Positions 4,141 through 23,222 of a stretch of DNA of 24,000 bases are shown one piece after another (the first letter of the stretch is position 1; every line of letters starts with the position of its first letter). The notes beneath the pieces are model-generated. The model was given only the letters and a program-made list of their open reading frames with translations, searched no databases and was not told the origin of the DNA. A program made the position numbers and the translations under genes. Source of the stretch: Candidatus Thorarchaeota archaeon (GTDB lineage Archaea > Asgardarchaeota > Heimdallarchaeia > Hodarchaeales > Hodarchaeaceae); contig JBHLRO010000030.1 in NCBI GenBank assembly GCA_048882505.1, positions 11,350 through 35,349 of the forward strand. The letters run 5' to 3'.

Positions 4141-6378
4141 TCATGTGGAAGATTCAAACGCATCCAAAATATACGAGTATATGGTTTTTTCTTCTCCGGA
4201 CGATTTGGCAAACAATCGTCGCACAATTAATTCTGGTGTACTAGCTGCATATTGATAATACACTGGGGTACGATCCACCAAAAGTTCTAAATCCTCCGAA
4301 AGTCCTTGCGCTTCAATGCCATCAATTCTTAGAGCCTCTTTGCTGTATTTTGCAATTTCTTGAGCGAGATGAGTAACGAAAATCCCCACAGAATGCGATG
4401 ATCGTCCCAATAAATCAAGAAACGCGGCGATCACACGAGCGGATGCCCCCGGTTCAGAGATACTCTCCATTTCGTCTGCTAAAACCAAACGAGAATGAGG
4501 GCTCATGATCATCTGCGAGAGAGTTTGCAGCGTAGTTTCGAAAGCACCTGCATCCATCTGGCCTGCCGCCTTTCTATAGTAATGGAGTTCCTTGAATCCT
4601 CCTAGCACTGCTTTTTTACACGGAATTGGGAGTCCCATCTGACCAAGAATTACCATTACGGCAAGTGAAACGATCAGGGTTGTCTTACCTCCGCTATTGG
4701 CACCAGAGAGCAGAACAATGCGTTCTCCGCTTACTACTCCATCGATCGTTCCAACTTCACCTACTGCATAAGATACTGGCTGAACCTTTGCTCCACCGCG
4801 TAGCTCCTGCTGGGCGAGAAATAGATTACGACCATTTTCAATTAATAATCCAGTTTTCGAGGATTCCCCGAGTTGAGGTAGGATTAATTGATATGTTGAA
4901 GCGAACTTACCCAGCATAAATAGGTAATCAAGTTCCAACATGTAGTTTAATGCTTGTTTAGCGATGTTTTCATATTGTTTCAGCGCTTTGGCCAGTCTAG
5001 TCTTTAACTCAAAGGATTTGATGGCACGTCGTTGTCGAAGATATGTTGTTAAACGGGAAACAATATCCTCAACAGGATCTACGGGATATCGAAGTTCTCG
5101 TGGAAATATCCCTACAAGGTATTCAATCTCCTCGTCCTGGAGATCAAGGGCTTTGATAAGACTTTCTTCCGCCTTATTTATGATCTCTTCAACTGCCATG
5201 AAGAGTTCATCATCCAAGTATTCTCGAAGATCCGTCCGACCACTGTCGGGAGCGTATTGGGAATCTTCAGATGAAATACCCTTAATGAGGGCGAGGATTT
5301 TTTCTCCTCCGAGTTCAACTGTGGACTGTTGGAGCTTTTTCTCAAGAGCCTCATTAAGTCCGATGAGAATCTCATCGAGCTTGGTTTCAAATAGCGTCTC
5401 TGCTCGTAATAAACGGGAGTATTCCACATTTAGGTCTGAGGTTGGTTCCCCAGATTCTTCCAAATTCCCCAGTTCTTTTCCCATTTCTCTTAGCATCTCT
5501 AGATCGAGATCCTCAATATAGGCACTTAACGCGGAGGACGGTAGAGTTTGAAGGAGATGGGTGAGACCGGCAATTGATTCAAGCGTTCTTTTGTTTCTGG
5601 CGAAAAAACTTAGGGTTTTTTCCGGAACAATCTGAACCAGATCATTCCGAGCCGATTCGCCGACCGTCACAACATTAGGAAGACTGTCATCTAGCAGGAC
5701 ATCAGAACCAATCCAGATAATCTCATCATATCCTTTTGTATAATCGCCTATTCGTTCGATATCATCGATAAGAGTAACCTCACAATGATAACCTACATCG
5801 GATGTGGTAAGATCTTTAAACAAATCCCTGTCAGGAGTGACAATCAATCTTGATGCAGTGTCAAGGCGCGCCTTTTGCTCTTTAAGAGGAGTTAGATTGC
5901 GCAAGAGAGTGTCATATTCCTTGTAGGAATGAGGGGATGCATGAATTAGTGATGCCAATTGCATTCCCAGATGAGCCACATTTTGACGTTCCCTGATTTT
6001 ATCGAGTGCAGAAATAGGGAGAGGGAAGTAGAGATACAATTTTGAGCGAGCATACAGGGTATTTGCAAATTTAGCAATGATATCAATCGTCTGATTGTAG
6101 ATACGGATTGCATCCTCGGTTTTCAAGAAATTCCGAACATCTTCTCCTGTTTCTTGAAAATGCAGATTGCGGCACAAGCTTAAAGCGAATTTTTCCCCGA
6201 TTCCTTCAATAGCTGAGATTTCAGCTATCCGAGATTCACGTAATGCTAGTAGAACGGCAGCTTCACTTCCAAATGCGGCTACGAGCCTATCTGCCACGGA
6301 GGGCCCAATCCCACGAATATCTCGAAGGTTTGTTATACTCAAAGTCTGTTCCTTTCGCTTGGCTATCTTTTTAAACAA
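4141..6378 (-). CDS. MutS-family ATPase (archaeal MutS2/MutS5-like) with N-terminal helix-hairpin-helix repeats
   Basis: N-terminus IRGIGPSVADRL...IEGIGEKFALSL (tandem HhH). C-terminal MutS domain V motifs: Walker A SGANSGGKTT, Walker B LVLADEMES, and FVTHLAQEI (equivalent to the MutS FATHY motif). No mismatch-binding domain or Smr domain is recognisable by eye. Confidence 0.75.
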   Translation of the reverse strand: MFKKIAKRKEQTLSITNLRDIRGIGPSVADRLVAAFGSEAAVLLALRESRIAEISAIEGIGEKFALSLCRNLHFQETGEDVRNFLKTEDAIRIYNQTIDIIAKFANTLYARSKLYLYFPLPISALDKIRERQNVAHLGMQLASLIHASPHSYKEYDTLLRNLTPLKEQKARLDTASRLIVTPDRDLFKDLTTSDVGYHCEVTLIDDIERIGDYTKGYDEIIWIGSDVLLDDSLPNVVTVGESARNDLVQIVPEKTLSFFARNKRTLESIAGLTHLLQTLPSSALSAYIEDLDLEMLREMGKELGNLEESGEPTSDLNVEYSRLLRAETLFETKLDEILIGLNEALEKKLQQSTVELGGEKILALIKGISSEDSQYAPDSGRTDLREYLDDELFMAVEEIINKAEESLIKALDLQDEEIEYLVGIFPRELRYPVDPVEDIVSRLTTYLRQRRAIKSFELKTRLAKALKQYENIAKQALNYMLELDYLFMLGKFASTYQLILPQLGESSKTGLLIENGRNLFLAQQELRGGAKVQPVSYAVGEVGTIDGVVSGERIVLLSGANSGGKTTLIVSLAVMVILGQMGLPIPCKKAVLGGFKELHYYRKAAGQMDAGAFETTLQTLSQMIMSPHSRLVLADEMESISEPGASARVIAAFLDLLGRSSHSVGIFVTHLAQEIAKYSKEALRIDGIEAQGLSEDLELLVDRTPVYYQYAASTPELIVRRLFAKSSGEEKTIYSYILDAFESST

Positions 6379-6532: not shown

Positions 6533-7495
6533 TTAAATACCAAGTTTGGTTATTCGTTTTGGATTTACCTCACGAATAAAAGTATGTAGCTCAGAAAACG
6601 AACAATGGTCACTATATGGGAAAAAATGGACATCAAGGCGTTTGTGGGCCAATTTTATTGCCCAACCCGTCGGTGATATTCGTAGTGCGTCCGAAATTTT
6701 GGGATGTAAGGAATTATCAATTCCCTGGAGATTTTCAACCATTCTTCTACTCCCAACAAAGACTTGAACATCATCGTTGTCTGTGAAAATATCCCATTCC
6801 CCGCCAATCTCCTTAAAAATCTCAATTTTTTGAGGTGGGGCCCAGATTTTTTTTCCAATTGCTTTGCTGATTGTTTGAAATAAAATCTCCTTGCCTATCT
6901 GGTATGCGGACAACCAGACATTTCTTTCAGGGTAATTTCCTGGGGCATGAATTAAGGTAAGGATATCCGAAATAAGCTCCTTGCGAGAAGGAAAATCATA
7001 TTTTGGATCTCTTCCATACACGTAGTCCACGTATAAATGATCAGGATTTCTTAATAATTCCATTTCCTCAATGATGACTGAACCAAGACGAAAATCGCCC
7101 GTATATACTTCTTTAGTTCCATCATTATCTTCTATAACAAACATTAAGCTGCCCAGACAATGATTGGCGTCCAGACAGTGAACCTTAAAATCGTCAAAAT
7201 CCAAAGATTGGCTAGGTTTGACGATTAAGCACTTTTCCCGGGGAATTCGATGTAAAGCTTTGATAACCGCCGCTGTTTCTCGTGTACATACGACCGTAGA
7301 ATCTTGAGCGGTAATAATATTCTTTAATCCTCTAGTATGGTCAGAATGGGCATGTGATAGGAAAAAATACCCGGATGAAGGTCTTCTGCGATCGTTTCTA
7401 CCAAAAGGAAATTCATCGAAATAACTTCTGGCGATCGAAGAATACACGTCGATTTCCTCTTGATATCTAGTGGGAAAAACCTCTTGAATGAACAA
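6533..7495 (-). CDS. SNM1/PSO2/Artemis-family DNA repair metallo-beta-lactamase (DRMBL, beta-CASP)
   Basis: Motifs closely resemble eukaryotic SNM1, as recalled from memory:
- FLSHAHSDHTRG (HxHxDH).
- CLDANHCLGSLMFVI (cf. LLDANHCPGAVM).
- VYTGDFR.
- LYVDYVYG...YDFPSRKE.
- C-terminal YSDHCSFSELHTFIREVNPKRI (cf. YSEHSSY..L..FV..L.P..I). Confidence 0.8.
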   Translation of the reverse strand: MFIQEVFPTRYQEEIDVYSSIARSYFDEFPFGRNDRRRPSSGYFFLSHAHSDHTRGLKNIITAQDSTVVCTRETAAVIKALHRIPREKCLIVKPSQSLDFDDFKVHCLDANHCLGSLMFVIEDNDGTKEVYTGDFRLGSVIIEEMELLRNPDHLYVDYVYGRDPKYDFPSRKELISDILTLIHAPGNYPERNVWLSAYQIGKEILFQTISKAIGKKIWAPPQKIEIFKEIGGEWDIFTDNDDVQVFVGSRRMVENLQGIDNSLHPKISDALRISPTGWAIKLAHKRLDVHFFPYSDHCSFSELHTFIREVNPKRITKLGI

Positions 7496-7635
7496 TAAAT
7501 GTGGTACGATTCAGTTTGGTTTATCAGTTTTCCAATTGGTTAATTTACGGTAGTAATCCTTATTCCTTCTTGTCCAGCAACATGGAACGAGTAAAAGACA
7601 TCATCCTAGATATTAAACCATCCAAAAGTAGATTG

Positions 7636-7675
7636 CGAAAATTTTTAAAGACTCTTAGAACCGCCTTTAATTGAA
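7636..7675 (+). promoter_or_regulatory. Candidate BRE/TATA region for the permuted 5S transcript
   Basis: AT-rich boxes cgaaaatttttaaag (7636-7650) and tttaattgaa (7666-7675) lie 30-70 nt upstream of the first nucleotide of the processing stem (7707). No experimental TSS is available, so this is positional inference only. Confidence 0.25.
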
Positions 7676-7706
7676 TCTAAAGGTACAGAATCTCACGTTG
7701 TATCAT

Positions 7707-7727
7707 GACATCGAGATCCTGCCGGAA
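7707..7727 (+). other. Leader strand of a BHB-like processing stem (GACAU-C-GAG-AUCCUG-CCGG-AA)
   Basis: Pairs with 7877-7892 and 7871-7874:
- GACAU (7707-11) with AUGUC (7888-92).
- GAG (7713-15) with CUC (7885-87).
- AUCCUG (7716-21) with CAGGAU (7878-83).
- CCGG (7722-25) with CCGG (7871-74).
- The 3-nt bulge AAG is at 7726-28. Confidence 0.6.
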
Positions 7728-7876
7728 GTTAAGCCGAGTTTCGTTCTGATCTGTACTGTTATGCGCGAGCTTACGGGAACATCAGAAAACGGGTATTGCC
7801 CGTTCATAGGGCTCGAGTAACACCCGGTCTCATTCCGAAAGATATGAAGGAATTTCTTCATTCCGGGAACCCGGAA
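7728..7876 (+). rRNA. Circularly permuted 5S rRNA-like gene (3' portion, capped helix I, then 5' portion)
   Basis: All canonical 5S elements are present but in rotated order:
- 7728-7741 GUUAAGCCGAGUUU: loop B 3' side and helix II 3' strand.
- 7746-7785 CUGAUCUGUACUGUUAUGCGCGAGCUUACGGGAACAUCAG: helix V, loop E, helix IV, with GCGA as loop D.
- 7788-7793 AACGGG: helix I 3' strand.
- 7794-7798 UAUUG: cap loop.
- 7799-7804 CCCGUU: helix I 5' strand.
- 7805-7808 CAUA: loop A.
- 7809-7817 GGGCUCGAG: helix II 5' strand, pairing with GAGUUU through three G-U and three Watson-Crick pairs.
- 7818-7839 UAACACCCGGUCUCAUUCCGAA: loop B, helix III, loop C.
- 7870-7876 CCCGGAA: helix III 3' strand.
Re-joining 7876 to 7728 gives the archaeal 5S consensus ...ACACCCGGUCUCAUUCCGAA[30 nt]CCCGGAAGUUAAGCC... 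Confidence 0.8.
7840..7869 (+). other. 30-nt insertion in 5S loop C containing a 7-bp hairpin
   Basis: AGAUAUGAAGGAAUUUCUUCAUUCCGGGAA interrupts the otherwise contiguous CAUUCCGAA|CCCGGAAG consensus. The hairpin is AUGAAGG-AAUU-UCUUCAU (7844-7861). CAUUCCG is directly repeated at 7831-7837 and 7859-7865. Confidence 0.6.
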
Positions 7877-7892
7877 ACAGGATCCTCATGTC
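7877..7892 (+). other. Trailer strand of the BHB-like processing stem (A-CAGGAU-C-CUC-AUGUC)
   Basis: Complementary to leader 7707-7721. It is preceded by the 3-nt bulge AAA (7875-7877), which lies on the opposite strand from bulge AAG (7726-7728) across a 4-bp CCGG/CCGG helix. Confidence 0.6.
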
Positions 7893-7926
7893 CATTTACT
7901 TGGATATTAGGGATGTGGAGAGTATG

Positions 7927-7934
7927 TTGTTTTT
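7927..7934 (+). terminator. Oligo-T archaeal terminator candidate downstream of the 5S transcript
   Basis: TTGTTTTT, with T5 at 7930-7934, lies 38 nt after the end of the processing stem. Archaeal RNA polymerase terminates at T-runs. Confidence 0.35.
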
Positions 7935-8067
7935 AGAATAGACATCGAAGGTTTTCCCCAAGGACCAATGTCCATATTCGTGATTTTTAATGTATATGAA
8001 TCGATTCTTATCAAAGGAATGAAAAAGCAGATTCAAAATCATTTCAGTTTTGGTTGGGACTGTTATA

Positions 8068-8874
8068 ATGGACTGGAAAACATGGGAAATTGAATACCAG
8101 TACATCGTTGAAGAGCTAGGGCTGGATCGCAAATCTGACTCCTATAGTGCCCAGCAACTTGAGGAAATCCTACTAAAGCATGCATCGAATCGTAAAAAAA
8201 CGATTTTGGATAAATTAATTGCAATACTTCAATATCCAATAATTATAGCTGGCGCAGGGCCTTCCTTGGAGAGAGATTTTGAACTGTTGATGATTACAAA
8301 AGGATTACGCAGAGCTTGGGTTATTTCCGCGGATGGGGCCACATCCTTATTGAAGAAGAAGTCCTTAGTCCCTCAGGTTGTGCTAACAGATCTTGACGGA
8401 GACCCTACTGCGATTGAATGGGCAATGAAGAATGGTTCAATCATTTTAATACACGCTCATGGGGACAACATCCATCTCGTAAAATCATTTTGTGAGGTTT
8501 ATGGGCCCAAATTTTCTACCTATCTTGTGTGGGGTACAACACAAACATATCCGGAACATTTATGGAATTTTGGAGGTTTTACAGACGGGGATAGGGCTAT
8601 CTGTTTAGCCCTACATTTTCAATCTCCATTAATAGCTTTAATAGGATTTGATTTTGGGAAAAAAATTGGAAAATACAGTATTCATAATTCCCCTCTCCAA
8701 AAATCTCCTGTCCGTAAAATTAGGAAGTTTGAAATCGCGCTCCGTATTATTTCATCCTCGTATCCTGATCATAAGGGATTTAGATATAATCTCACTGAAA
8801 AGGGGCAAGAAATCCCAGGTTTTACACGAATTATTGCTAACAGATTTTGGCAAGAGTGGGATCGTCTCGTCTGA
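8068..8874 (+). CDS. mptE: MptE-like 6-hydroxymethyl-7,8-dihydropterin pyrophosphokinase (DUF115 family)
   Basis: Family pattern MDWKTWEIEYQYIVEELGLD...IIIAGAGPSLE...VISADGATSLL...VPQVVLTDLDGD...ILIHAHGDN. The start is moved from the ORF-track TTG 8050 to the first ATG at 8068. Confidence 0.7.
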   Translation: MDWKTWEIEYQYIVEELGLDRKSDSYSAQQLEEILLKHASNRKKTILDKLIAILQYPIIIAGAGPSLERDFELLMITKGLRRAWVISADGATSLLKKKSLVPQVVLTDLDGDPTAIEWAMKNGSIILIHAHGDNIHLVKSFCEVYGPKFSTYLVWGTTQTYPEHLWNFGGFTDGDRAICLALHFQSPLIALIGFDFGKKIGKYSIHNSPLQKSPVRKIRKFEIALRIISSSYPDHKGFRYNLTEKGQEIPGFTRIIANRFWQEWDRLV

Positions 8875-10656: not shown

Positions 10657-13299
10657 ATGAAAATAGTCAGGTCATCAACCTCAGAGATCTCATTTCTAGT
10701 TGAATCTATCGATATTCCGATGCAAGAACAGGATTTCATAATAATCACTGAACCTGAGAGAGATGGGGAAGCCCCCCAGAAATATTTGGCTCAAATTGAA
10801 AAGCTGATTCAAAACAAAGAAGGTAGTATCACAGGCAGCGCAGCAATTTTGGGGATTATAAATGCCACAGACCACAGCCTATCTGCATGTCGATTTCCTA
10901 TCTCAACAGATTCTCGTTTGGATCCGCCACCTGTCGGGCTTATTTCGAAAATCCTTTCTTCACGGGACGATAGAGGAATATATCTGGGAGATGTAATTAC
11001 CTCTGCAAACCAAAAAGAACCTTTTCTGATCACACCTAATTTTATTGAAAGACATTTGTTATGTGTCGCAACTACGGGAGCAGGGAAGTCATATAGCATA
11101 GGGGTTCTACTTGAGGAAATTCTACTGAAATTTCCAGAAGCGGCTGTCATCCTGTTCGATATTCATAATGAATATTGGGGTTTAGCTCTTCCCAATGATG
11201 GCATCGAAGTAGAGCATTTAGACCACCAAGACTACTCTCCACGGGGATTTCTAGCCAATATCTTAATCTTCGAAAAAGAATCCCTAGGTCTGGGAAGAAA
11301 GTTCGATCTACCTCGCCTCCGTCGCTTGGTGGATCTAACTGCACCACAAGAAAATTCACTCGCTACGCTCCTGGATTCGCCATTGGTCCTGGAGGACTTG
11401 ATTGAGAAAATCAAGCAAAGTGAGGATATGCATAGTGCCACGCGAGAGAATTTAATTTCTAAAATTCGAAAACTTCGTACTCTAAGATTTTTTGATTCTG
11501 AATTACCATTGGATGCCCTAGTTCGATCCGGACAGGTGTCATTGGTACGTTTGGATCAATTTGTGGATGAACGGAACAGGGGTATTGTGGTTAATGAGAT
11601 CCTTACCCAGCTGTTTGACCAGAAGATTCGTGGAGAACTTGACACCAAAGAAGTTATTATCGTTTGCGAAGAAGCACATCGTTTTTCCTCGGAAAATGAT
11701 ATTTTAGCTAGAATCTCACGTGAAGGCCGTAAGTTTGGAATCTATACCGTTCTTGTCTCCCAGCGACCAGGGGATCTTCCTGATGATATCATCGCCAACA
11801 TGAACACGCTCATAGCACTTCGTGTTCGTTCAGATAAGGATCTGACGAAAATCCGACTGATGGAGGGAATTCGGGCTGAAACGGTAGCGTTACTTCCACA
11901 CTTGTCTCGCGGAGAAGCGTTAATTGTCGGGCTTCGACAAGGTACTTATCGCCCAATTAAGGTTTTAGTTCGCCCACGTATGAGTAAACATATCGACCCT
12001 CAAATAGATCATTTGCCTGATTCAATTCCTCGATATTCACCTCACAGACAGATTGCCATTAGTCCTCCTGTTACATCAGTGCCCGAGGAGATTAAACCAC
12101 CGCCCAGCTATTCCCCACCACTTATCGATGCCATCCAAGCTTTTGATTCCAAAGATTTGAGTAATCTTTTAGCGTGCGAACACGTTTTCATCCTACATAA
12201 GCGTACTGGACTTTGTCTCTTTGATCTTAGTGTGAGCATGCTAGAAATTGATTCGCAACTCGTCTCGGGATTTTTAACAGCTATTTCAGGGTTTTTTCAG
12301 GAACTAAAGACCCAGAGTTCTGTAAAAGAAAGGCTCATTGTCCGAACTTTTGCTGAAGATATCGGCGATCGTGCTTTCGAGATAGTACAATGTGAGGGAG
12401 AATATACGGTAACTGCTGTCATCCTTGATCGCGCCCTCAAATATCTAAACAAGTTCAAACAACGAATAAGGGATTTTGTATATGTTTTTGAAAACACATT
12501 TCGGTCTCAGCTAAATTCAGCGAGTACCAGTGGTGTTATCATACACGAGGATTTTGCCATGGCCATAAAGCTTCTCGACTACTTCATGGGCTTTTCCTTG
12601 CTCATTCCCCTGCGATTAGATCCTTTTCCACCAGAAATGGAATTTTCTGATCTCTTAGGAATTATTGATTCTCAAATGGAAAGAGTAGCTAAATCTGAGG
12701 GTCTCTTTGCTGAGGAAATCGTCAATCAGTGTCTATTGGACTCTGAATATAATCTAAGGGAAATTATCCAAGCTGTCCTCCTTTTCTTACAGAAAGGAAT
12801 CTTGGTTCTGCAGGATAAAACACGAACATTACCTCCCTTTACAGAGACTTCTAGACCCGGAGATCTCATTGAATCCTCTCCAATCGAGGATATCAAGGTA
12901 AAGGAGGAACCTCTTCTCGAAAAGATGTCCGTTATCCCTCCTAAACTCTCTGAGGAAAACGAAACACTCCACATCGAGTGGTTGCCTGCTGTTATTGAAA
13001 AAATCACGCCAACTGCTCTACCAAATGCCTTGGTACCTGATATTTTAGAAAGAGATCTCATTTTTGAATCGGATTTAAGGATAAAAACGCATTCCACAAG
13101 AGTAGAAACCCTTTCAAAAACTGATCTCGATAAGTGGGCTCGAATTATGGACACGAATGGCTTTATTTTGACTCAACAGAATGGAAATCCTCTTAGCGGG
13201 ATAAAACTGATATTTGAATCAGAAGCGACGAAACTTGTCTGTTCGCTCGCAAAACTGAAGGACGGCGATTATATACTCATTCTTGGAGAAATACTATGA
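10657..13299 (+). CDS. HerA/FtsK-superfamily ATPase (DUF87-type) fused to a C-terminal longin-like domain and further uncharacterised modules
   Basis: N-terminal half:
- Walker A CVATTGAGKSYS.
- Walker B VIIVCEEAHRF.
- REGRKFGIYTVLVSQRPGDL and NTLIALRVRSDKD, as in DUF87/HerA ATPases.
Residues 507-619 (nt 12175-12513), CEHVFILHKRTGLCLFD...LVSGFLTAISGFFQEL...RIRDFVYVFENTF, follow the longin/sybindin/AP-sigma pattern. This is a visual assignment. About 260 further residues include a possible winged-helix segment. Confidence 0.7.
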   Translation: MKIVRSSTSEISFLVESIDIPMQEQDFIIITEPERDGEAPQKYLAQIEKLIQNKEGSITGSAAILGIINATDHSLSACRFPISTDSRLDPPPVGLISKILSSRDDRGIYLGDVITSANQKEPFLITPNFIERHLLCVATTGAGKSYSIGVLLEEILLKFPEAAVILFDIHNEYWGLALPNDGIEVEHLDHQDYSPRGFLANILIFEKESLGLGRKFDLPRLRRLVDLTAPQENSLATLLDSPLVLEDLIEKIKQSEDMHSATRENLISKIRKLRTLRFFDSELPLDALVRSGQVSLVRLDQFVDERNRGIVVNEILTQLFDQKIRGELDTKEVIIVCEEAHRFSSENDILARISREGRKFGIYTVLVSQRPGDLPDDIIANMNTLIALRVRSDKDLTKIRLMEGIRAETVALLPHLSRGEALIVGLRQGTYRPIKVLVRPRMSKHIDPQIDHLPDSIPRYSPHRQIAISPPVTSVPEEIKPPPSYSPPLIDAIQAFDSKDLSNLLACEHVFILHKRTGLCLFDLSVSMLEIDSQLVSGFLTAISGFFQELKTQSSVKERLIVRTFAEDIGDRAFEIVQCEGEYTVTAVILDRALKYLNKFKQRIRDFVYVFENTFRSQLNSASTSGVIIHEDFAMAIKLLDYFMGFSLLIPLRLDPFPPEMEFSDLLGIIDSQMERVAKSEGLFAEEIVNQCLLDSEYNLREIIQAVLLFLQKGILVLQDKTRTLPPFTETSRPGDLIESSPIEDIKVKEEPLLEKMSVIPPKLSEENETLHIEWLPAVIEKITPTALPNALVPDILERDLIFESDLRIKTHSTRVETLSKTDLDKWARIMDTNGFILTQQNGNPLSGIKLIFESEATKLVCSLAKLKDGDYILILGEIL

Positions 13300-13365
13300 T
13301 ATTTCAGGGAAAATTGCGCTTTAGCTTCGCCTCCTAGGAAACCAATCTGCCAGGTGTTTATGGGG

Positions 13366-15945
13366 TTACCCCATAAATTCCCGATCAACAATCATTTGTT
13401 CGTCCTTGAAAATGTCCAGATTCCCAAGCCAGGTTGGAAGAACCTTCGCATAACGCTTTTCAAAATCGACAAGAAAATCATTCAGTTTTCTTCGAAGTTC
13501 GGTAGATGTAGAATCAGCAAAGATGGCTGCAAACACCCACTTGGCATACTCAATGGTCAAAACAACATCTCCATGATCGATGGTTCTGAGGAGTTGTTCA
13601 CTCCTTACAGCTTCTTTGGCAAAAGAAGTTATGGCCGAAAAAAGACCAGCTACTAGGGCAGGTTCAACTATTGATTCTTTACCAAACGTATGGGCAAGTA
13701 CAGCGCGGCCATCAAGCATCATAACATGCAGAGAGTCGATTGTGACTTCTTCAAACGAATAAGCGAATTCCCTATGTAAAAGGGATAAAACTTGCGTTAA
13801 AGGAACCTCCAAATCGAAAGTGAGCTCATCCAAAATATGGTGAATCTCTGTGTTGCTCAAACCAGTAGCATTAGAGAGTTCTCCAATGGGACGATATTGA
13901 GTGGAGAGGGCTTGTCGTAAAACGGCGCCATCATCGATTTTCTCCCAACGCTCGTTTATTAGAGCCTTGACAGCGGGATCATCAACGGTACCAGGGAGTC
14001 CAATAAGAATAATATCGGATTTTCGGGATATTTCACCTTCCGAAGGCAACCGTGTCATATCGGAAAAAACGGATTTATATTGGGTTTTTCCTTCTCCTTT
14101 TTGTGTTCTCGTATGGAATTGAATCCGGGCAAGGAAAAGTAAGGCGCCGAAGATAAGGATTATTGCCAAAGGATGTAGAAGATTGTAAGGAATGGAAAGG
14201 ATGCCCAAAAAAGTACTACCTCCCGTTCCACGCCATATCACTGGAATTTGATGCAGCTCAGGCACCAAGAAGTAAACATCTGCAAACCTACCTGTTTTCC
14301 ACACACTCGTGAGCCATTTTAAGTTTATAACTTGACCAAAGCCGGCCAAAGTGGATTCTATTGTTATAAAAGGTGTAATCAATGGAACCCCAGCAAAACG
14401 GGGGAATCCCTGTGGAAGACCCAGGAATGTGGCCCATCCACCAGAATACCAACTGATGAGAGCCAAACTCACTGTTAAGATCGAAAGATATGTGACAACA
14501 GCAGTTCCAATTATACTCCAATTCCATCTCCGGAAAAAAAGAAGCACAAGGGCCGCAATTAGGAATGTAGCATAATTTTGCGTTAACCAAAAGAAAGTGT
14601 CATATTGGACAGTATTAATATTGACAAAAATACTTTGTATAATCACTCGATATGCAAAAAACATGAATGCTAATAAGAAGCCAATTACAACTCCGAATGA
14701 ATAGGATTTTACCGTATTACGGACGGAAATACGTTTGAAGGAGGTTCGAACGTTTTTGATGGTTTCGATTAGCTTAATAAGAAGATAAATCGAAAATGGT
14801 TCAAATATATCCAGGAATAGGATAAAAAAGATTGATACCATTAGGAAATATACGACAAAATAAGAAATTACAAATATCTGTTGCGAGAAAAGGATTAGGA
14901 AAAGAAACACTGCCAGGATTGACATGAACGCTCCGACTGTCGATAGACTTTGGACCATTGCTACATATAGCTGATTGCCCAAAAACTTCCCTTTTCGTGA
15001 TAATCGACTGGCTTTAATCAGATATACGGAGAAAACAATCGCCGCAATATAGGCAAAGAAGATCTCCAGGAACCACCCCATAGAGGTCCCTTGTAGCAAG
15101 CTAGGATTTTCCTCCTCACCAAGAGCTAGAAGAATAGTATTAAGCAAGAATAGAGTAATCGGTAGGATAGCAATCAAGACTTTTAAGAGCTCTCGCTCAT
15201 TATCCCAATCTTTCTCCTTCACGCGGATCGATATTTCTTGGAATGGAGAGTTTTCAGTTTCATATTGGATTTCTCTTATTCGTTCTCTTACCCCACGGAC
15301 TTGGAGGAATTGGTTCCGTAGATCTTCATTATCCTTTTCCAGTTCTTCTATCGCAGTAGTTAAGGCTTGAAGCTCATCCCCCGTTGCGTGCTTTTTCTGG
15401 GCCTGAAATTCTTTCAAGTTTTCTTGATTCCGTTTAATCAGTCTTTTCAAAGGTTTTCGATCATTTCGTTTATCCCCCCATGTCTGATAGAGAATTATTC
15501 CCATAGATAAGAATGGAGATATACCGAAAACAAAAGCAAGAATTACTACGGGATATGTTAGGAAGATAACGATACTGTTCACGAAATGTTGGAACAAATA
15601 TTTGACCAATAGAGGAATTGGAATAAAAATCGCTCCAGTTTGGATGACGGCTTCAGAATCCCAGACTGTTGACCATTGGTTGCTGTTTGAGATAGGATAG
15701 TATTGCTGTTCCAAGTATGCGGACGGGTTAGGAACCAAGGCATTCAAGAAGCTAGGAAAAATAAAATATGCCAAATAAAAAACACAAAAACCAATGAATC
15801 CCCTATTATAGATAGTTGCTCGTATATTATCCCTTTTTCTGCGGGTAAACAAGTATGGGATAGCTAGTACTATAAGGGGGGAGAGTGACAGGACAACCGA
15901 AACGGTCAAATTAAGGGGATCCGAAAGCGGGTCAAACAAGTCCAT
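13366..15945 (-). CDS. Large polytopic membrane protein with a cytoplasmic coiled-coil loop and a C-terminal HTH-like plus longin-like domain
   Basis: More than 10 hydrophobic helices. A charged coiled-coil insert (NQENLKEFQAQKK...EELEKDNEDLRNQFLQVRG). The C-terminal soluble region has IGELSNATGLSNTEIHHILDEL (HTH-like) and LHVMMLDGRAVLAHTF...LVAGLFSAITSFAKEA...RRKLNDFLVDFEKRY (nt about 13450-13731), paralogous to the domain in the convergent ATPase. No family name is recognised. Confidence 0.65.
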   Translation of the reverse strand: MDLFDPLSDPLNLTVSVVLSLSPLIVLAIPYLFTRRKRDNIRATIYNRGFIGFCVFYLAYFIFPSFLNALVPNPSAYLEQQYYPISNSNQWSTVWDSEAVIQTGAIFIPIPLLVKYLFQHFVNSIVIFLTYPVVILAFVFGISPFLSMGIILYQTWGDKRNDRKPLKRLIKRNQENLKEFQAQKKHATGDELQALTTAIEELEKDNEDLRNQFLQVRGVRERIREIQYETENSPFQEISIRVKEKDWDNERELLKVLIAILPITLFLLNTILLALGEEENPSLLQGTSMGWFLEIFFAYIAAIVFSVYLIKASRLSRKGKFLGNQLYVAMVQSLSTVGAFMSILAVFLFLILFSQQIFVISYFVVYFLMVSIFFILFLDIFEPFSIYLLIKLIETIKNVRTSFKRISVRNTVKSYSFGVVIGFLLAFMFFAYRVIIQSIFVNINTVQYDTFFWLTQNYATFLIAALVLLFFRRWNWSIIGTAVVTYLSILTVSLALISWYSGGWATFLGLPQGFPRFAGVPLITPFITIESTLAGFGQVINLKWLTSVWKTGRFADVYFLVPELHQIPVIWRGTGGSTFLGILSIPYNLLHPLAIILIFGALLFLARIQFHTRTQKGEGKTQYKSVFSDMTRLPSEGEISRKSDIILIGLPGTVDDPAVKALINERWEKIDDGAVLRQALSTQYRPIGELSNATGLSNTEIHHILDELTFDLEVPLTQVLSLLHREFAYSFEEVTIDSLHVMMLDGRAVLAHTFGKESIVEPALVAGLFSAITSFAKEAVRSEQLLRTIDHGDVVLTIEYAKWVFAAIFADSTSTELRRKLNDFLVDFEKRYAKVLPTWLGNLDIFKDEQMIVDREFMG

Positions 15946-16273: not shown

Positions 16274-18031
16274 TTAACGTCTCTTTCTGTACAATGCGAC
16301 CAAGGGGGGAATTGCCAGGACTACTGAGAGCAGTTCAAATCCCGATATCGGACCCGTGGTTGTATCTCCCGGACCTGGTCCCGTAGTAGTTGTATCTCCT
16401 GCTGCGAGCGCAGCTACGGCAGAATAGGCAGGATCGTGTATGATTTCACCACCATACCACTCTGGGAACTCTGTAAAGGTGAAGTATAGCACAAAGTTGA
16501 AGTAGACGCCTTCGTCACCAGGCGGTAAAAGACCCGGCTCCAGTTGGACAGCAAACCACTTTGTGAACTGATAGGCTAGCGCAAATTCCAATTTAAAGTA
16601 GACTTTTGATACGTCAGGAATAGCCCAGGCCCAGTTGGTTGGATCGAAGAGGTGAATTTCTACATTTCGAGGCACCGCGGGATCAATATTCCACGGCGCG
16701 TTTTCAAGACCTTGTAGGAGATACGTATACTTGCCCGTGAATTCTGTGTAAAAGAATGTATTTCCACCTGAGTCCAAACTGATACGTCGTTGAGTAGGAT
16801 TGTCTGTTTCATCTGTATGTTCTGGATTAGATAAACCAATAGATGTGGTAGCGGTGGCTACTGTTAATCCAAATCCATTCTGCATATTCATCCGTCTCTT
16901 GGCATCATCGTTGAAATAGAAGGCCATGTTTGGAAAGAACACCGTTTTACTAGCTGGAATATTTTTACCCAAAACATCCACACTGACTAACGATGAAGGC
17001 ATTTGGAATGTGTAGTTTGGTTGGTCAGTAAATGGAGAATAATCCCAGGTTTCTGACATGTTAACCGTTTCTCCGGCGATAACCAAGAAATTTGTTTCCC
17101 CGATGTTATAATGTGTAGTGGTGGTTCCTAGCACATGAGCGTTAGCGCCGCTGTTTATTTGCGTTGTAAATTCATATTCAAAGCTTAAATAGTCCAAAAC
17201 ACTGGCAGCTACAATATTTTTTCCAAAAACAATTCCTCCTGGGTTATCAGCAACGAGATTTGCGTCTCCTAGGATGTCAATTCCGCCCAGTTCAACACTA
17301 ATTGGTTGCCATAGTACGAACAGATTGGTGTAGTTTATTCCAAACCTGTATCCGTTTTCTACTGTCTCGAAGAAGGGAAAATAGTCGAAATGATTGATTC
17401 GATAGGAATGTCCGTTGTCTGCGAATACATCATTGAAGCCATCGATCCCTTCTTGCAGGCCAAAAGTATAGCCCATGTAAATTTCATCCCCAGCGTCCAT
17501 TGTGGTGTCAGTCGAATTGGAGCTGTATGCTATGAGCGACATGAAGTTATTAGTCACGAAAACTTCTTCATTATCCCAAGGTACTGTCCAATGCTGGACT
17601 AATTGCTGGAATGGAGCAGTCGCATTAATATGGAAGATTGGGGTGCGCAAGGCGTCTTGGTACTGAGGGAACAAGGGAGAGTCCAAAACTGTCTTGATAT
17701 CATCATGGAATAGATCTAGCAACGTCAGGTTGTGTTCGTACTTCTCCAAGGCGGAAAAACCCGTTTCGATACCAGAATTATTCATATATGCGAAGAAGAA
17801 CTGTTTGTCTTCTGTTTCATCAGAATCTCCCGTTGCAGCACTTGCGTTATAGAGATCGCGAATTAAATCAGGATTGGCTGGATCCACGACTGCTACGTCT
17901 ACTTCTACGGCAAAGTAGTCTTCACTGAATGAGTGGCCCACAAAGGAAGATGCAGCACTGACGGGGGTGGAGATCATTACAAGGGCTAGCAGAAAGATCA
18001 CTGAAAAGCCCATAAGAAGCTTCTTTTTCAT
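16274..18031 (-). CDS. Secreted surface protein with Sec signal peptide and PGF-CTERM-like C-terminal anchor
   Basis: N-terminus MKKKLLMGFSVIFLLALVMISTPVSA/ASSF. AGGTGA lies 9 nt upstream of ATG 18031, whereas the ORF-track start 18043 is a GTG. The protein is acidic with multiple N-x-S/T sequons. The C-terminus has a Thr/Gly/Pro-rich linker GDTTTTGPGPGDTTTGPISGF, then the hydrophobic helix ELLSVVLAIPPLVAL, then YRKRR. Confidence 0.7.
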   Translation of the reverse strand: MKKKLLMGFSVIFLLALVMISTPVSAASSFVGHSFSEDYFAVEVDVAVVDPANPDLIRDLYNASAATGDSDETEDKQFFFAYMNNSGIETGFSALEKYEHNLTLLDLFHDDIKTVLDSPLFPQYQDALRTPIFHINATAPFQQLVQHWTVPWDNEEVFVTNNFMSLIAYSSNSTDTTMDAGDEIYMGYTFGLQEGIDGFNDVFADNGHSYRINHFDYFPFFETVENGYRFGINYTNLFVLWQPISVELGGIDILGDANLVADNPGGIVFGKNIVAASVLDYLSFEYEFTTQINSGANAHVLGTTTTHYNIGETNFLVIAGETVNMSETWDYSPFTDQPNYTFQMPSSLVSVDVLGKNIPASKTVFFPNMAFYFNDDAKRRMNMQNGFGLTVATATTSIGLSNPEHTDETDNPTQRRISLDSGGNTFFYTEFTGKYTYLLQGLENAPWNIDPAVPRNVEIHLFDPTNWAWAIPDVSKVYFKLEFALAYQFTKWFAVQLEPGLLPPGDEGVYFNFVLYFTFTEFPEWYGGEIIHDPAYSAVAALAAGDTTTTGPGPGDTTTGPISGFELLSVVLAIPPLVALYRKRR

Positions 18032-18171
18032 CTCATTAATCACCTAAGAATATCTTCGGGTAAGAGCTACCCAAGTCAGATTCTAACCTCTTCCACCTAC
18101 TTAGCATTATTAAAGATGTATGTAATTAAAATCCGCAATTTTGTTCCTAAGAAAGGGTTTGGCGAGTGTAT

Positions 18172-19803
18172 TTAGCCACGGCGCCATTTCTTACGCGTAA
18201 GAACCACCAAAGCTAGAACAACAGTTATGTTTGGCCATAATTGGAATGATGTGATCTGCCCATTGGATGATAGGTTCGAAGGCGGAGAGTCCTTGATTGC
18301 GTATTGAAGAGAACTAAACGCAAATGGAGTGCCTGCCCATGATGGTAATCTGAATTCACGGTTATACAGAGCATCTGTAAGATACAGATTAGATAGGTGA
18401 TAAAGTTCGTCACTCGTTAGAGAACTTACATTTGAGTTCTCAACAAATCGTTTAATACTATCTACAATCAAATGCCTAACCAAGGATGTCTCTTGGGAGA
18501 AGAGCTCGGCACCTGCAAAACCGATATGTTGGTTAAATGCAATAGTTTTCGTAACAGCGGGGACAAATGATTCTGAACCAACTTCGTTTTCTCTTTGAAC
18601 AACGTAGTCACGACCTGTAACGGGAGTTGACGTAAGGAGAATACCATCATGAATAATGTCGACCGCTTCTGTAATTGGGAAATCCGCTTCATTGAGTGCG
18701 GATACAGTCTTATTTTGGTCATCAATTTCTATTTGAATGTCCTCTAATGGGTTAATGTCGTTAAAAATACCAACATTGTGACCCGTAAGGAGGGAAAGCG
18801 AAATTTCGGGGAATAGATCCAATCGGGTCTGGATATCGGAGCCTTTATACCAGGAGATGGTTTCGTTGATTGTGAAGAGCTGATTGTAGGTCTTTTCAAT
18901 TTTACCTTGGGTAGAATTTGTCCAGATCGGTTCTGCAGGTAGTTCTTCATTTATTATCAAATTCGTCACTCTTCCAATTGAAACATCACTAATCGTTTCT
19001 ACACCCTCAATTTCATATGAAGTATATTTTCTGATGGTTAAGGAGAAAGTTATGTTTTCGAACTGAACCAACAGAAACTTATTAGCAATACCCACTACTG
19101 AAACTTGGCTAAAATCTATGTTCTCCGTTTGAAACAAATAGGTGATGTTTGAGTACGTCATATCTATTCGTACTCCCAATGGCAGTTCCTCCATTTCGAC
19201 CAAGAGCGTACTGGATGTATCAGTCGAAAAATTACCACCATAAAGAGATTCTAGGAATTCTAGAGGAACATTCCCGTATCCCAGTTGGTAGTGAGCCGGA
19301 TTAAATCCAGATCCATTAATCTTAAGGGCTATGCCTAGAAAATCCTGTGTGATGACAAAATCTTGCCCCGATGGGAGTTCGAAGTGGTGTAAATATTTGA
19401 CATAGGGGACAGTAGAAGTCACTTTTAATGAATCAATCAGAGGATGCGTTCGTTTAACCTTCTCCAAGGCTAGGACAGTAGATTGGATGCTTGGAGTTTG
19501 GTGGACGACCATAGAGACGATATTATCCTCATCAAGATCTGGATCGCTGGTATCATTGAAGGGCTGGTGGGTAAATAAGTTTTGCTTGAGGTAAATTGCC
19601 TCATCAATGGAGGTCTCTTGTACATTATTGAAGTCAAATTCTACCCCAAACAAACTTTGTCCATCGAAGAAAGGATTGAGCTGGGAGAAAACATAATTGT
19701 TACTTTCGGCTACTGCCGTGGTATTACCCGTCCAAATAAGTCCAAAAAAGAAAATGCCGGATAATCCCAGAATGAGAAGGAAGGTTTGAGAATGTTTGAT
19801 TAT
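18172..19803 (-). CDS. Secreted surface protein with C-terminal TM anchor; N-terminus probably lies upstream of the ORF-track TTG start
   Basis: The ORF-track start (TTG 19653) leaves no signal peptide. The same frame is open back to 19803 and encodes IIKHSQTFLLILGLSGIFFFGLIWTGNTTAVA/ESNNY, which has a signal n-region, h-region and AxA site. GGAGGT (19811-19816) lies 7 nt upstream of ATA 19803. No ATG/GTG/TTG exists in this extension. The C-terminus is ITSFQLWPNITVVLALVVLTRKKWRRG. Confidence 0.55.
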   Translation of the reverse strand: MIKHSQTFLLILGLSGIFFFGLIWTGNTTAVAESNNYVFSQLNPFFDGQSLFGVEFDFNNVQETSIDEAIYLKQNLFTHQPFNDTSDPDLDEDNIVSMVVHQTPSIQSTVLALEKVKRTHPLIDSLKVTSTVPYVKYLHHFELPSGQDFVITQDFLGIALKINGSGFNPAHYQLGYGNVPLEFLESLYGGNFSTDTSSTLLVEMEELPLGVRIDMTYSNITYLFQTENIDFSQVSVVGIANKFLLVQFENITFSLTIRKYTSYEIEGVETISDVSIGRVTNLIINEELPAEPIWTNSTQGKIEKTYNQLFTINETISWYKGSDIQTRLDLFPEISLSLLTGHNVGIFNDINPLEDIQIEIDDQNKTVSALNEADFPITEAVDIIHDGILLTSTPVTGRDYVVQRENEVGSESFVPAVTKTIAFNQHIGFAGAELFSQETSLVRHLIVDSIKRFVENSNVSSLTSDELYHLSNLYLTDALYNREFRLPSWAGTPFAFSSLQYAIKDSPPSNLSSNGQITSFQLWPNITVVLALVVLTRKKWRRG

Positions 19804-21318
19804 CTAGCTTACCTCCAAGTAATCCTTTAACCACGTCAGGTGCTTTGATCCAATTGTATATGAAGATCTCTTCTGGTCCTTTATAATAATTATGACCCCT
19901 AACTCCGATAATTTCTTTATGTGATGTTGTACGCTTGAATGGTGGGCATTGATCTCGTTAGAAAGCTGTGATAACGACATTGGCTTACGTTTATCCATTA
20001 ATGTGCGACACAGCTCTCTTGAAAGATTGCTTTTCAAGGCTAAGGCCAATTCCGAGGTTTGCGGTGATTTTTCTCCGAGAATGTAGAAGATATGATAACG
20101 TCCAACCTTCTCATGCGTGACGAAGTTAAAATCATCTAAGGCCTGGAGGTGCCATAGCAGTGATGAGATTCCGCATCCGATTTCTCTCTGAATCTCCCGT
20201 AAATGGGCTCCTTGTTCCCCTTTCTCCTCTAGATACTCCATTATTTGTGCCCTGAGTTCGTTATCGAGTAATTCATCTTCAGTCATCCTTCGACGTTGAG
20301 GTGAGTAGGTCACGTGTGCGATGAAGAAAAATGTACCCAAAAGCGCACCAACAATAACGTCACGACTCTTCGACATGAGTCCTGTTTGTACCAATAAAAC
20401 AAAGCCGATAATGGCTGCTCCACCAAGAACCGCCAGTCCGACAAGCTGTTCCAGTCCACCAAACTCTATTAGAGCGTTATTTCCATTGGAAGAGGGCCTC
20501 ACGGTCAAGAGCGCGGTCTGTTGCAATATTGAAACAATTTCTGGTTCAGTAACCCTCCCGTTTGAATTCAGGAGGAAAAAGTTGGATCCAATGGAACTCT
20601 CTTGAACTTCTAGAGCAAAACTCCCAATTACCACTCGCGGGCCGTCCATCCAAATTCCTGAATGAAAACCGTCAAATATTGATTCGAAGGGTTCAGGCTT
20701 GGGAATTTCCGCCAAGAGTCGAGTACGATTACTGAGCGCAACCCAAGCTGAGCTGCCAGGGAATTCAAGATTGGTTTGGGATGAATTGATGTTTAATAGA
20801 GACATTTGAGCTTCGTCAAGTTGAATATTTAGATTGTCATAAGAACCGTCAAGTGGATACACAACGGGTGCGGTGGCGGTAATTCCAAGCTGATTAAGGA
20901 TCTGAAGGGGCGTGGTATGTAAAAATCGATTTAGTATAAAGACTCCTCTTCCCGATTCTTTCCACAGCCTTATATTCACGGGCAATTTGATTGGCAAGGG
21001 CTGATCATTGATCCACCAGATTGCGCCGACGCTCTCATTTTGAAAGAGGAATGAGCTATTGGAAAAGAGGTGCTCAATATCATAATAGGTCGCTTGTCGC
21101 CCAGAATCGGCCACTAAGCTTTCACCCAATGATTTGTCCTTAAAAGACCCGTAAAATATCGCAATCTTTTCTAAATCAGAGAAGTTTTGCTCTGTCCTAG
21201 CAAATAGCCCCGTTCCAAGACTAGAAAAGAGAATTCCCCAAAAAACTAGAAAAAAGAAAACGATATGAATTATCGGGGCTCTTACTTCCAACTTCATGAT
21301 TTCGCTACCCATTTTCAA
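19804..21318 (-). CDS. Membrane-bound transcriptional regulator: N-terminal TM, about 250-aa non-cytoplasmic-looking domain, TM pair and tandem C-terminal winged-HTH domains
   Basis: Hydrophobic segments: IIHIVFFFLVFWGILFSSLGTGLFA, LVGLAVLGGAAIIGFVLLVQTGL and VIVGALLGTFFFIAHV. These are followed by LRAQIMEYLEEKGEQGAHLREIQREIGCGISSLLWHLQALDDFNFV and MSLSQLSNEINAHHSSVQHHIKKLSELGVI, which are ArsR/TrmB-like wHTH signatures. The start could instead be Met3 or Met8. Confidence 0.65.
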   Translation of the reverse strand: MKMGSEIMKLEVRAPIIHIVFFFLVFWGILFSSLGTGLFARTEQNFSDLEKIAIFYGSFKDKSLGESLVADSGRQATYYDIEHLFSNSSFLFQNESVGAIWWINDQPLPIKLPVNIRLWKESGRGVFILNRFLHTTPLQILNQLGITATAPVVYPLDGSYDNLNIQLDEAQMSLLNINSSQTNLEFPGSSAWVALSNRTRLLAEIPKPEPFESIFDGFHSGIWMDGPRVVIGSFALEVQESSIGSNFFLLNSNGRVTEPEIVSILQQTALLTVRPSSNGNNALIEFGGLEQLVGLAVLGGAAIIGFVLLVQTGLMSKSRDVIVGALLGTFFFIAHVTYSPQRRRMTEDELLDNELRAQIMEYLEEKGEQGAHLREIQREIGCGISSLLWHLQALDDFNFVTHEKVGRYHIFYILGEKSPQTSELALALKSNLSRELCRTLMDKRKPMSLSQLSNEINAHHSSVQHHIKKLSELGVIIIIKDQKRSSYTIGSKHLTWLKDYLEVS

Positions 21319-22760: not shown

Positions 22761-23222
22761 CTATTTGAACTGTACATTGGCCGCCCGACTTCTCACATAC
22801 TTATTAAAGACCATTTTCCCATCAGTCAAAACGCTACTTAAATTCCTACCAAATTCGGACCAGTATTTGATAAGCGACTGTCGTTCTTGCCGAGTCTTGA
22901 CCATTTCAGGGGAGAGGAAAAACGAGATCTCAAAACCTTCTTCTGGAGTTTTCATTACCGTGAGGTGACGATCAGAATTGCGAGCCAGCTCGGTACGCAT
23001 TCGATCGAAAATAAACTGCTCAACAGGGTCGTTAATTGCGATTTTCAAGGAAACGACGGCAGAATTACCGTGTCGAATTACTTCCCCATTTTCAAAAGGG
23101 ATTACCTCTCGTGGTACCCCCTTACAACACTCATCATCTGGTTCCATAACGCAAATTGGCTCTCTTCCTCCGCTTTTACAATCTAGTGGCTCTAAAATCA
23201 AATCCGTCTCTGATAATGGCAA
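22761..23222 (-). CDS. Hypothetical protein (153 aa) with an N-terminal Cys cluster
   Basis: A long ORF with no convincing competitor on the other strand. It contains C-x8-C...CC (LDCKSGGREPICVMEPDDECC). No family is recognised by eye. Confidence 0.4.
   Translation of the reverse strand: MPLSETDLILEPLDCKSGGREPICVMEPDDECCKGVPREVIPFENGEVIRHGNSAVVSLKIAINDPVEQFIFDRMRTELARNSDRHLTVMKTPEEGFEISFFLSPEMVKTRQERQSLIKYWSEFGRNLSSVLTDGKMVFNKYVRSRAANVQFK

Follow-up and report, generated by a model that had tools for sequence, protein, structure and literature searches.

Two convergent genes in the stretch of Asgard archaeal DNA analysed here (the window, 24,000 nucleotides in length) encode proteins that carry the same small domain. 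One product is a soluble ATPase of the HerA/FtsK class, the other is a membrane protein with about 12 hydrophobic segments, and each was shown to hold one copy of a longin-type domain (LD) belonging to a single family. The pair is laid out as follows, with protein lengths in amino acids (aa).

10657..13299, + strand: HerA/FtsK-class ATPase gene, 880 aa (open reading frame, Pfam DUF87 match, HerA chains best in PDB)
13366..15945, - strand: polytopic membrane protein gene (MEM); product of 859 aa from a pan-Asgard family
13300..13365, between the genes: gap between the facing stop codons, 66 nt

An initial annotation of the window had described an 880-aa ATPase with full HerA/FtsK-type motifs and an 859-aa polytopic membrane protein, encoded convergently with 3′ ends 66 nt apart. 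The open reading frames and intergenic sequence, the motifs and DUF87 match located below, and the hydropathy of the membrane protein uphold this description. In related loci, the convergent gap ranges from 6 to 120 nt. The nearest relatives of both proteins place the source among the Heimdall-group (Hodarchaeales-like) Asgard archaea. A metagenome-assembled genome (MAG) deposited as Candidatus Thorarchaeota encodes a protein 100% identical to the ATPase. For the membrane protein, the best relative (93% identical) comes from a MAG with one of the labels Heimdallarchaeota, Hodarchaeota/Hodarchaeales and unclassified Promethearchaeota, as do the remaining close relatives of both proteins.

One domain family in two proteins

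The two copies of the domain occupy the following positions, delimited by AlphaFold2 models, Foldseek, hhalign and alignment.

12139..12606, + strand: LD of the ATPase, residues 495-650
13369..13785, - strand: LD of the membrane protein, residues 721-859

Direct comparison of the two window proteins by BLASTP gives a weak match, in which ATPase residues 531-619 align with membrane-protein residues 760-836 at 24% identity (89 residues, E = 0.16). Profiles were then compared with hhalign. Ortholog-only profiles returned 81.7% probability (P = 1.1e-5, 100 columns), and profiles of the wider families, comprising 64 ATPase and 95 membrane-protein copies, returned 98.9% (E = 2.5e-17, 123 columns); controls with unrelated domains of the same proteins, or with a reversed alignment, remained at or below 5%. 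Cross-family matches were also obtained with tblastn: the window membrane protein as query reaches the LD of an ATPase ortholog at E = 3e-4, and a divergent ATPase C-terminus reaches membrane-protein LDs in many loci at 1e-5 to 1e-10.

In a joint MAFFT alignment, the two sets of copies have in common H[VI][ML] in the first strand, a hairpin glycine, the central-helix pattern [DE]P.L[VI][SA]G[FLM][FL][ST]AI[ST].F..E and, after it, GD, [IL]E and FE. Past the longin core they continue into a common tail, L..[FW].G.LD.F..L[VL][DN]. Since both proteins have this tail, the shared unit amounts to about 140 residues, located at about 495-650 in the ATPase and about 717-859 in the membrane protein. At the level of sequence comparison, these results confirm that the domains are homologous as opposed to similar by chance, and the earlier claim that both proteins carry the same domain is borne out.

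A predicted longin fold

Ortholog alignments were used to model ATPase residues 440-880 and membrane-protein residues 610-859 with AlphaFold2, giving mean predicted local distance difference test (pLDDT) scores of 76.7 and 86.8, respectively. In both models the shared region has the element order beta-beta-alpha-beta-beta-beta-alpha, which is that of longin domains. The ATPase LD (core 507-625) comprises strands at 507-514 and 520-525, a helix at 533-551, strands at 561-590 and helices at 597-625, and the membrane-protein LD comprises strands at 736-753, a helix at 762-779, strands at 788-810 and a helix at 815-831. The conserved central helix is the part of lowest confidence in both (pLDDT 50-65).

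When the membrane-protein tail was compared with PDB structures using Foldseek, matches with probability 1.00, target TM-scores of 0.57-0.68 and root-mean-square deviations of 3.5-4.2 Å over about 125 columns were obtained to AP2/AP1 sigma, the N-terminal domain of AP mu, TRAPP, COPI zeta/delta, Sec22b, Mon1-Ccz1, LAMTOR and an Asgard roadblock protein. Individual chains include AP2 sigma 6owo_S (E = 2e-4, TM-score 0.61), 9ddt_B (0.68), Sec22b 1ifq_B (0.68) and TRAPP 3cue_C (0.60). The ATPase C-terminus finds the same families more weakly (target TM-score 0.43-0.56, E of 3e-3 to 4e-2), with AP sigma 9ddt_B at 0.56 and 1nrj_A at 0.43 (E of 6e-3 to 3e-2), and with SRX, VAMP7, LAMTOR and Roadblock2 9jq8 also among its matches. 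Structurally aligned residues are about 10-15% identical, with a range of 7-19% over the matches listed. With roadblock structures (9jq8, LAMTOR) among the matches to these predicted models, the placement of the LD within the superfamily is soft.

For the entire 441-residue ATPase C-terminus, the structures ranked first are tri-longin Rab guanine nucleotide exchange factors (Mon1-Ccz1, Fuzzy-Inturned and BLOC-3), aligned over at least 400 columns with weak scores (E of 3e-3 to 2e-2, probability 0.4-0.75, TM-score about 0.2). Support for a tri-longin module does not go beyond these weak scores: the profile detects a single LD, and the middle domain is helical and not longin-like.

Sequence searches gave a different outcome. 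None of 20 LD sequences matched the Pfam longin families Clat_adaptor_s, Sybindin, Sedlin_N, Longin or SRX, or the roadblock family Robl_LC7 (PF03259), at E values up to 5, and the LD profile matched no solved chain among PDB sequences. The likeness to the longin-type folds of TRAPP and AP sigma that the initial annotation had seen by eye therefore stands at the level of the fold, as predicted by AlphaFold2 and Foldseek, and fails at the level of sequence, where neither Pfam nor PDB provides a match. Elsewhere in the window, positions 23375-23803 on the - strand encode a Roadblock/LC7 protein (PF03259, E = 1e-7); a canonical roadblock domain in this genome is thus recognisable by Pfam, unlike the LD studied here.

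The ATPase motor and its C-terminal module

Apart from the LD, the ATPase is divided into four regions.

10657..10977, + strand: N-terminal domain, residues 1-107; no Pfam match; missing in the type B motors of loci L080 and L081 (below)
10978..11991, + strand: HerA/DUF87 P-loop core, residues 108-445 (Pfam, PDB matches, motifs and conservation)
12544..12813, + strand: helical winged-helix-like domain, residues about 630-719 (AlphaFold2 secondary structure; profile matches elsewhere)
12979..13296, + strand: C-terminal alpha/beta domain (CT), residues 775-880; pLDDT >90; seen only in this ATPase family

The core contains Walker A, ATTGAGKS, at residues 138-145 (nt 11068-11091), Walker B, VIIVCEE, at residues 333-339, followed by H341 (nt 11653-11679), RKFG at 358-361 and SQRP at 368-371, and both Walker motifs are conserved in 56 ATPase orthologs. 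Residues 108-318 match the Pfam DUF87/HerA central domain (PF01935) with 63.9 bits (cut-off 23.2). Among PDB sequences, the closest matches are to HerA chains (E about 1e-20), over residues about 124-442 only, and generic HerA proteins match the core alone, or 36-57% of the query. Full-length orthologs were found only in Heimdall/Hodarchaeales-type MAGs. No hydrophobic segment was noted in the ATPase, for which no dedicated hydropathy scan was made.

Several searches addressed the position of this motor within its class. The HAS-barrel (PF09378), which generic HerA relatives do carry, was not found by Pfam in residues 1-107. Scores remained far below the NCBIfam cut-offs for the HerA equivalogs NF040819 and NF040937 (98.7 bits against 970 and 73.6 against 800), for the anti-phage HerA equivalog NF042944 (62.6 against 850), and for the equivalogs CedD (61.1 against 600, E = 8e-17) and CedB (39.7 against 700, E = 2e-10). 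A PADLOC scan returned generic HerA models only for the ATPase and nothing for the neighbouring genes. Genes for NurA, Mre11, Rad50, VirB/Tra and archaellum components are absent from the vicinity, in agreement with what had been noted at the outset, and those for NurA, Mre11 and Rad50 are absent from the whole window and from related loci as well.

In the C-terminal module, the label of the winged-helix-like domain rests on predicted structure; the same domain is found again immediately behind the LD of many receptor-like proteins, which are described below. Residues 732-770 form a disordered linker in the AlphaFold2 model. A CT profile matched nothing among PDB sequences, and a word-indexed protein search with the CT profile (residues 772-880) recovered two short fragments and 0 of about 55 known orthologs. 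This low yield looks like a quirk of index sensitivity and not like biology, and the search was treated as uninformative.

The membrane protein

The membrane protein comprises three further regions.

14128..15945, - strand: membrane region, residues 1-606 (hydropathy, conservation)
15181..15519, - strand: charged 113-residue loop, residues 143-255, with weak coiled-coil-type Pfam matches
13786..14127, - strand: tail segment, residues 607-720, with a beta-hairpin and then a helical winged-helix-like region; weak HTH_IclR match (E = 0.15)

About 12 hydrophobic segments are apparent by the Kyte-Doolittle scale, with the orientation of the first four ambiguous. The 250-residue tail behind the last membrane segment is predicted to be cytosolic by the positive-inside rule. 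No match to the protein was found in Pfam, NCBIfam, PADLOC or PDB sequences, and a PF28006 HpsJ annotation on a few orthologs is faint and was rejected as a family assignment. Across 45 orthologs that are about 63% identical overall, LD residues 761-815 are almost invariant, with 95-100% column identity, and this degree of sequence conservation suggests strong interaction constraints. The invariant stretch, which lies within window 13369-13665 (residues 761-859), comprises the central helix of the LD and the strands that follow, and it points to unusually strong constraint on this surface.

Residues about 161-220 constitute an insertion that is missing in the shorter Loki/Odin-type homologs and in the homolog from locus L080. 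The idea that ATPase adjacency goes together with this coiled-coil insertion was rejected, as the L080 homolog, which has no insertion, still has an ATPase neighbour.

Spread and architectures of the LD family

A HMMER search with the joint LD profile retrieved at least 5,339 representative clusters at E ≤ 0.001 and 1,176 at ≤ 1e-10. All members with a source name are from Asgard archaea (Hodarchaeales, Helarchaeota, Promethearchaeia and Atabeyarchaeia), and no curated model for the domain was found in Pfam, NCBIfam or PADLOC. The initial annotation had read the sharing of the domain as a sign that the two proteins dock through it; in a family of this size with very many architectures, such sharing is nothing peculiar to the pair. 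Of the 147 best new representatives, 37 are members of the membrane-protein family, 3 are HerA-LD proteins and 107 have other architectures, in which the LD typically starts 30-45 residues past a hydrophobic or transmembrane helix.

Three patterns recur among these other architectures. Receptor-like proteins consist of a signal-like helix, an ectodomain of 500-1400 residues with Ig/CARDB/MG2-type matches, one transmembrane helix and the LD, and several of them then carry the same winged-helix-like domain as the ATPase. A second type combines 6-10 membrane segments with a C-terminal LD. In the third, a KaiC-like ATPase (PF06745/DUF835) lies behind the LD; examples are P0232, P0234, P0240 and P0233, one of them from Atabeyarchaeia, which are composed of an ectodomain, one transmembrane helix, the LD and a KaiC/DUF835-type ATPase. 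Some chains hold two or three LDs, a tandem arrangement that is consistent, as far as sequence can tell, with LDs acting in pairs.

When LDs were compared with one another, the nearest non-ATPase relatives of the ATPase LD were receptor-type LDs (E of 1e-15 to 1e-25). Local duplication as the origin of the two LDs in the window was ruled out, because the ATPase LD is far closer to these receptor-type domains.

Extensive shuffling of longin and roadblock domains in Asgard genomes has been described (10.1101/2020.10.19.343400). The literature that we examined, which is incomplete, holds no account of the HerA-LD architecture, of the pan-Asgard membrane-LD protein, of its pairing with a deacetylase (below) or of the juxtamembrane LD class, and the asCOG supplementary tables may already list these families. 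What is known is the expansion of roadblock and longin domains in Asgard archaea; what is new is the HerA-LD architecture as a variant.

Conservation of the gene pair and its surroundings

To survey the locus, one genome per species was searched with the tail of the membrane protein, yielding 72 loci. In 19/19 Hodarchaeales-type loci with room for an ATPase gene, the ATPase is convergent with and adjacent to the membrane protein. Two more distant loci extend this observation. L081, in which the membrane protein is 49% identical to that of the window, retains the surrounding block of genes along with the pair. L080, in which identity is 31% for the N-terminal region of the membrane protein and 55% for the LD, retains the convergent pair, and both of its outer flanks differ from those of the window.

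The ATPase counterparts in L080 (8001-10634) and L081 (7727-10339) have a different DUF87/HerA core, which we call type B as opposed to type A in the window. Its Walker A motif is GSTGSGKT, it has no N-terminal domain of about 100 aa and it shows no tblastn similarity to the window core. The difference between type A and type B reflects either an in-situ swap of the motor or extreme divergence. The LD, winged-helix-like and CT domains are retained in both loci at 27-35% identity, and it is the C-terminal module, as opposed to the motor, that has stayed constant in the evolution of this ATPase.

Outside the Hodarchaeales-type genomes the membrane protein has another neighbour. In 47/50 Loki/Thor/Odin/Hermod-type loci (L030-L079), where the membrane homologs are about 740-760 aa long, a gene of the deacetylase family (Pfam Hist_deacetyl) is located immediately upstream of the membrane gene in divergent orientation. 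Examples of this pair are 7034-8119 with 8246-10393 in L035 and 4214-5323 with 5431-7647 in L006. The deacetylase pairing is absent from Hodarchaeales-type loci, and it is far broader than the pairing of the membrane protein with the ATPase. Near distant membrane homologs we also observed genes for Arf/Ras-type GTPases, at a distance of 4-5 kb (L007 15510-16040 and L084 2157-2684), too sparsely for linkage, though of interest should the LD serve as a GTPase platform.

The window itself contains the following neighbours.

16274..18043, - strand: 589-aa surface protein with a Heimdall-CTERM sorting signal (NF045529); conserved neighbour, system membership uncertain
18172..19653, - strand: 493-aa protein without family assignment; conserved neighbour, system membership uncertain
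19804..21318, - strand: 504-aa protein with two ArsR-type helix-turn-helix (HTH) domains; conserved neighbour, system membership uncertain
4141..6378, - strand: MutS domain V protein with N-terminal HHH motifs; also in L002-L004
6533..7495, - strand: DRMBL-type metallo-beta-lactamase nuclease; also in L002-L004
1639..3039, - strand: beta-CASP RNase/nuclease; also in L002-L004
1161..1586, - strand: JAB/MPN protein, observed in the window

The genes for the 589-, 493- and 504-aa proteins lie upstream of the membrane gene on the same strand, are kept in Hodarchaeales-type loci and are absent from L080. In the conserved block the order is beta-CASP, NfeD, MutS-like, DRMBL, MptE, PTPS, thioredoxin reductase and ATPase, followed on the opposite strand by the membrane protein, two unknown proteins and the HTH protein. 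Located 3-9 kb upstream of the ATPase, the MutS/HHH, DRMBL, beta-CASP and JAB/MPN genes make up a nucleic-acid-processing cluster. Two small genes of eukaryotic-signature type are found on the - strand, one at 22761-23222 for an ARPC4-like protein (PF05856, E = 1e-8) and the other at 23375-23803 for the Roadblock/LC7 protein mentioned above.

A possible membrane anchor for the motor

Longin and roadblock domains of eukaryotes form homo- or heterodimers and often present a surface to a small GTPase, and DNA is the default substrate of the HerA-type ATPase class. In the mechanism that we propose, the LD would be a platform for contacts between proteins, a role that longin and roadblock domains have elsewhere. 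The ATPase would attach to LD-bearing membrane tails through its LD, winged-helix-like and CT domains, with its convergent neighbour as the prime candidate anchor. The outcome would be a ring motor tethered at the membrane and moving a polymer, for which DNA is the class default. Dimers of roadblock and longin domains are described as GTPase platforms, those of Asgard proteins included (PMC10933270). Argued from such analogies, docking of the ATPase on membrane tails via the LD, with the neighbour as its best candidate, is a possibility that we put forward tentatively, short of calling it probable.

Several observations favour docking, among them the homology of the two domains, the predicted longin fold of both, the adjacency in 19/19 Hodarchaeales-type loci, the tandem LDs and the near-invariance of membrane-protein residues 761-815. 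The fusion of the LD to a second, unrelated class of ATPase, the KaiC-like proteins, indicates that coupling between LDs and ATPases is recurrent. In addition, the pair in L080 has persisted despite rearrangement of both outer flanks, and in L080 and L081 it has persisted through a change in motor subtype; at 27-50% protein identity, such persistence would be surprising for neutral synteny.

A number of results weigh against docking, and most of them are accommodated by an alternative in which the LD is a general Asgard signalling or regulatory module, for instance a small-GTPase platform or a juxtamembrane module for dimerisation or transduction, that the two proteins acquired separately, their adjacency being inherited synteny without contact. 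The LD family is huge and architecturally promiscuous, and with at least 5,339 clusters many alternative partners are possible. The LD of the neighbour is not among the nearest relatives of the ATPase LD, which are receptor-type domains, so that the sharing of the domain is no private link of the pair. The whole surrounding block, which comprises 12 genes across these genomes, is syntenic and holds most of the adjacency. The two genes are convergent, which precludes a shared transcript. In the complete Heimdall-group chromosome CP070760.1 (L001), an intact ATPase gene lies beside the last 110 codons of the membrane gene (12743-13072), a remnant that is 78% identical and starts inside the LD; this position likewise lacks the HTH gene and both genes for unknown proteins.

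The pair is likewise uncoupled in other lineages. Co-occurrence of the two genes, which the initial annotation's proposal of a joint machine calls for, holds for the 19 Hodarchaeales-type loci, L081 and L080. It does not extend to P0327, a partial ATPase of the window type with a methyltransferase gene downstream in place of the membrane protein, or to P0177 and P0178, membrane homologs from soil metagenomes without an ATPase neighbour. A HerA gene is present in 0/50 Loki/Thor/Odin/Hermod-type loci, that of cultured MK-D1 included; 3 of these break off shortly past the membrane gene, and the other 47 have room for it downstream. The shuffling of longin and roadblock domains documented in Asgard genomes (10.1101/2020.10.19.343400) adds to the case for separate acquisition. 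Survival of the pair in L080, with new flanks and another motor subtype, speaks against it, since neutral synteny would not be expected to last at this level of divergence. We consider separate acquisition and docking equally likely.

A further alternative is that the ATPase serves LD membrane proteins in general, and the receptor-like ones in particular, as a shared cytosolic effector or disassembly motor, such that the neighbour is one client or none. The closest relatives of the ATPase LD, and the same winged-helix-like domain, do occur in receptor-like proteins, and the KaiC-like fusions elsewhere suggest that receptors without a fused ATPase might borrow one. However, no linkage between ATPase and receptor-like genes was seen in the loci examined and the basis of this explanation is domain similarity alone, and we regard it as quite unlikely.

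It is highly improbable that the protein is a HerA of DNA repair (NurA-HerA end resection) or of anti-phage defence with incidental extra domains: although its core matches HerA helicases best, anti-phage HerA models match too and MutS-like/HHH, DRMBL and beta-CASP genes lie in the same block, the equivalog scores given above are about ten-fold under their cut-offs, no NurA, Sir2, DUF4297 or other known partner is adjacent, and the block is of a stable housekeeping type in all genomes and shows no trace of a mobile island. A bona fide NurA-HerA end-resection helicase was rejected on the equivalog shortfall and the absence of both NurA and a HAS-barrel, and a defence island or mobile element on the stable synteny and the absence of partner genes.

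Implications for membrane platforms in Asgard archaea

Small GTPases of eukaryotes organise membrane traffic on platforms formed by longin and roadblock domains, as in adaptor complexes, TRAPP, Mon1-Ccz1 and Ragulator. Many such domains are known from Asgard archaea. Here, one longin-fold sequence family adjoins the membrane in thousands of Asgard clusters and is fused or linked to two unrelated classes of ATPase. The family offers pairs that can be tested directly: the ATPase tail with the membrane-protein tail, and each of these with the Arf-, Rab- or Rag-like GTPases of Asgard archaea.

If docking of the ATPase on the membrane tail is correct, longin-mediated recruitment of machinery to membranes would be older than eukaryotes. 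Otherwise, the results still provide a domain family that lacks a model, along with a pan-Asgard membrane protein that merits a curated profile. A broader proposal can be made, which we consider speculative and unlikely. A large, uncatalogued class of Asgard membrane proteins, both single-pass receptor-like and polytopic, would have a longin-fold domain as their first cytosolic module. Pairing between longin domains, perhaps under the control of small GTPases, would bring ATP-driven machines to these proteins, and the Hodarchaeales case would be a HerA-class ring motor on the pan-Asgard 12-segment protein. Recruitment of this kind would constitute a prokaryotic precedent for longin membrane platforms in the closest known archaeal relatives of eukaryotes.

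Comparison with known systems

Relative to the eukaryotic longin proteins (AP, COPI, TRAPP, Sec22b/VAMP7 and SRX), the window LDs are alike in predicted topology and add a conserved tail after the core. They also differ in what they are joined to, a HerA motor in one case and membrane proteins in the other, and we know of no eukaryotic architecture with an LD on a HerA motor or on a membrane protein of this kind. Roadblock2 of MK-D1 (PDB 9jq8) is of the same fold superfamily and the same phylum, and it is among the top Foldseek matches for both models. The Asgard expansions of this superfamily also include longin and roadblock domains fused to small GTPases.

The HerA of NurA-HerA (PDB 4d2i and 9x1l) has in common with the window ATPase the P-loop core, Walker A and B, and the RK.G...SQRP region. 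Unlike generic HerA proteins of about 500 aa, the window ATPase has a C-terminal extension of 435 residues that contains the LD, winged-helix-like and CT domains.

The Ced DNA-import system of Crenarchaeota combines the membrane protein CedA with the HerA-like ATPases CedB and CedD. The window differs from it in scores far under the Ced equivalog cut-offs, in a membrane protein that matches no Pfam, NCBIfam or PADLOC model, and in its tether, which would be a longin-type domain and not a membrane segment of the ATPase. The likeness lies in the concept of a HerA-class ATPase combined with a polytopic membrane protein, and the CedD and CedB models do match the window core. Judged by the equivalog scores the window ATPase is not a member of the Ced system, which is the nearest functional analogy for the pair described here.

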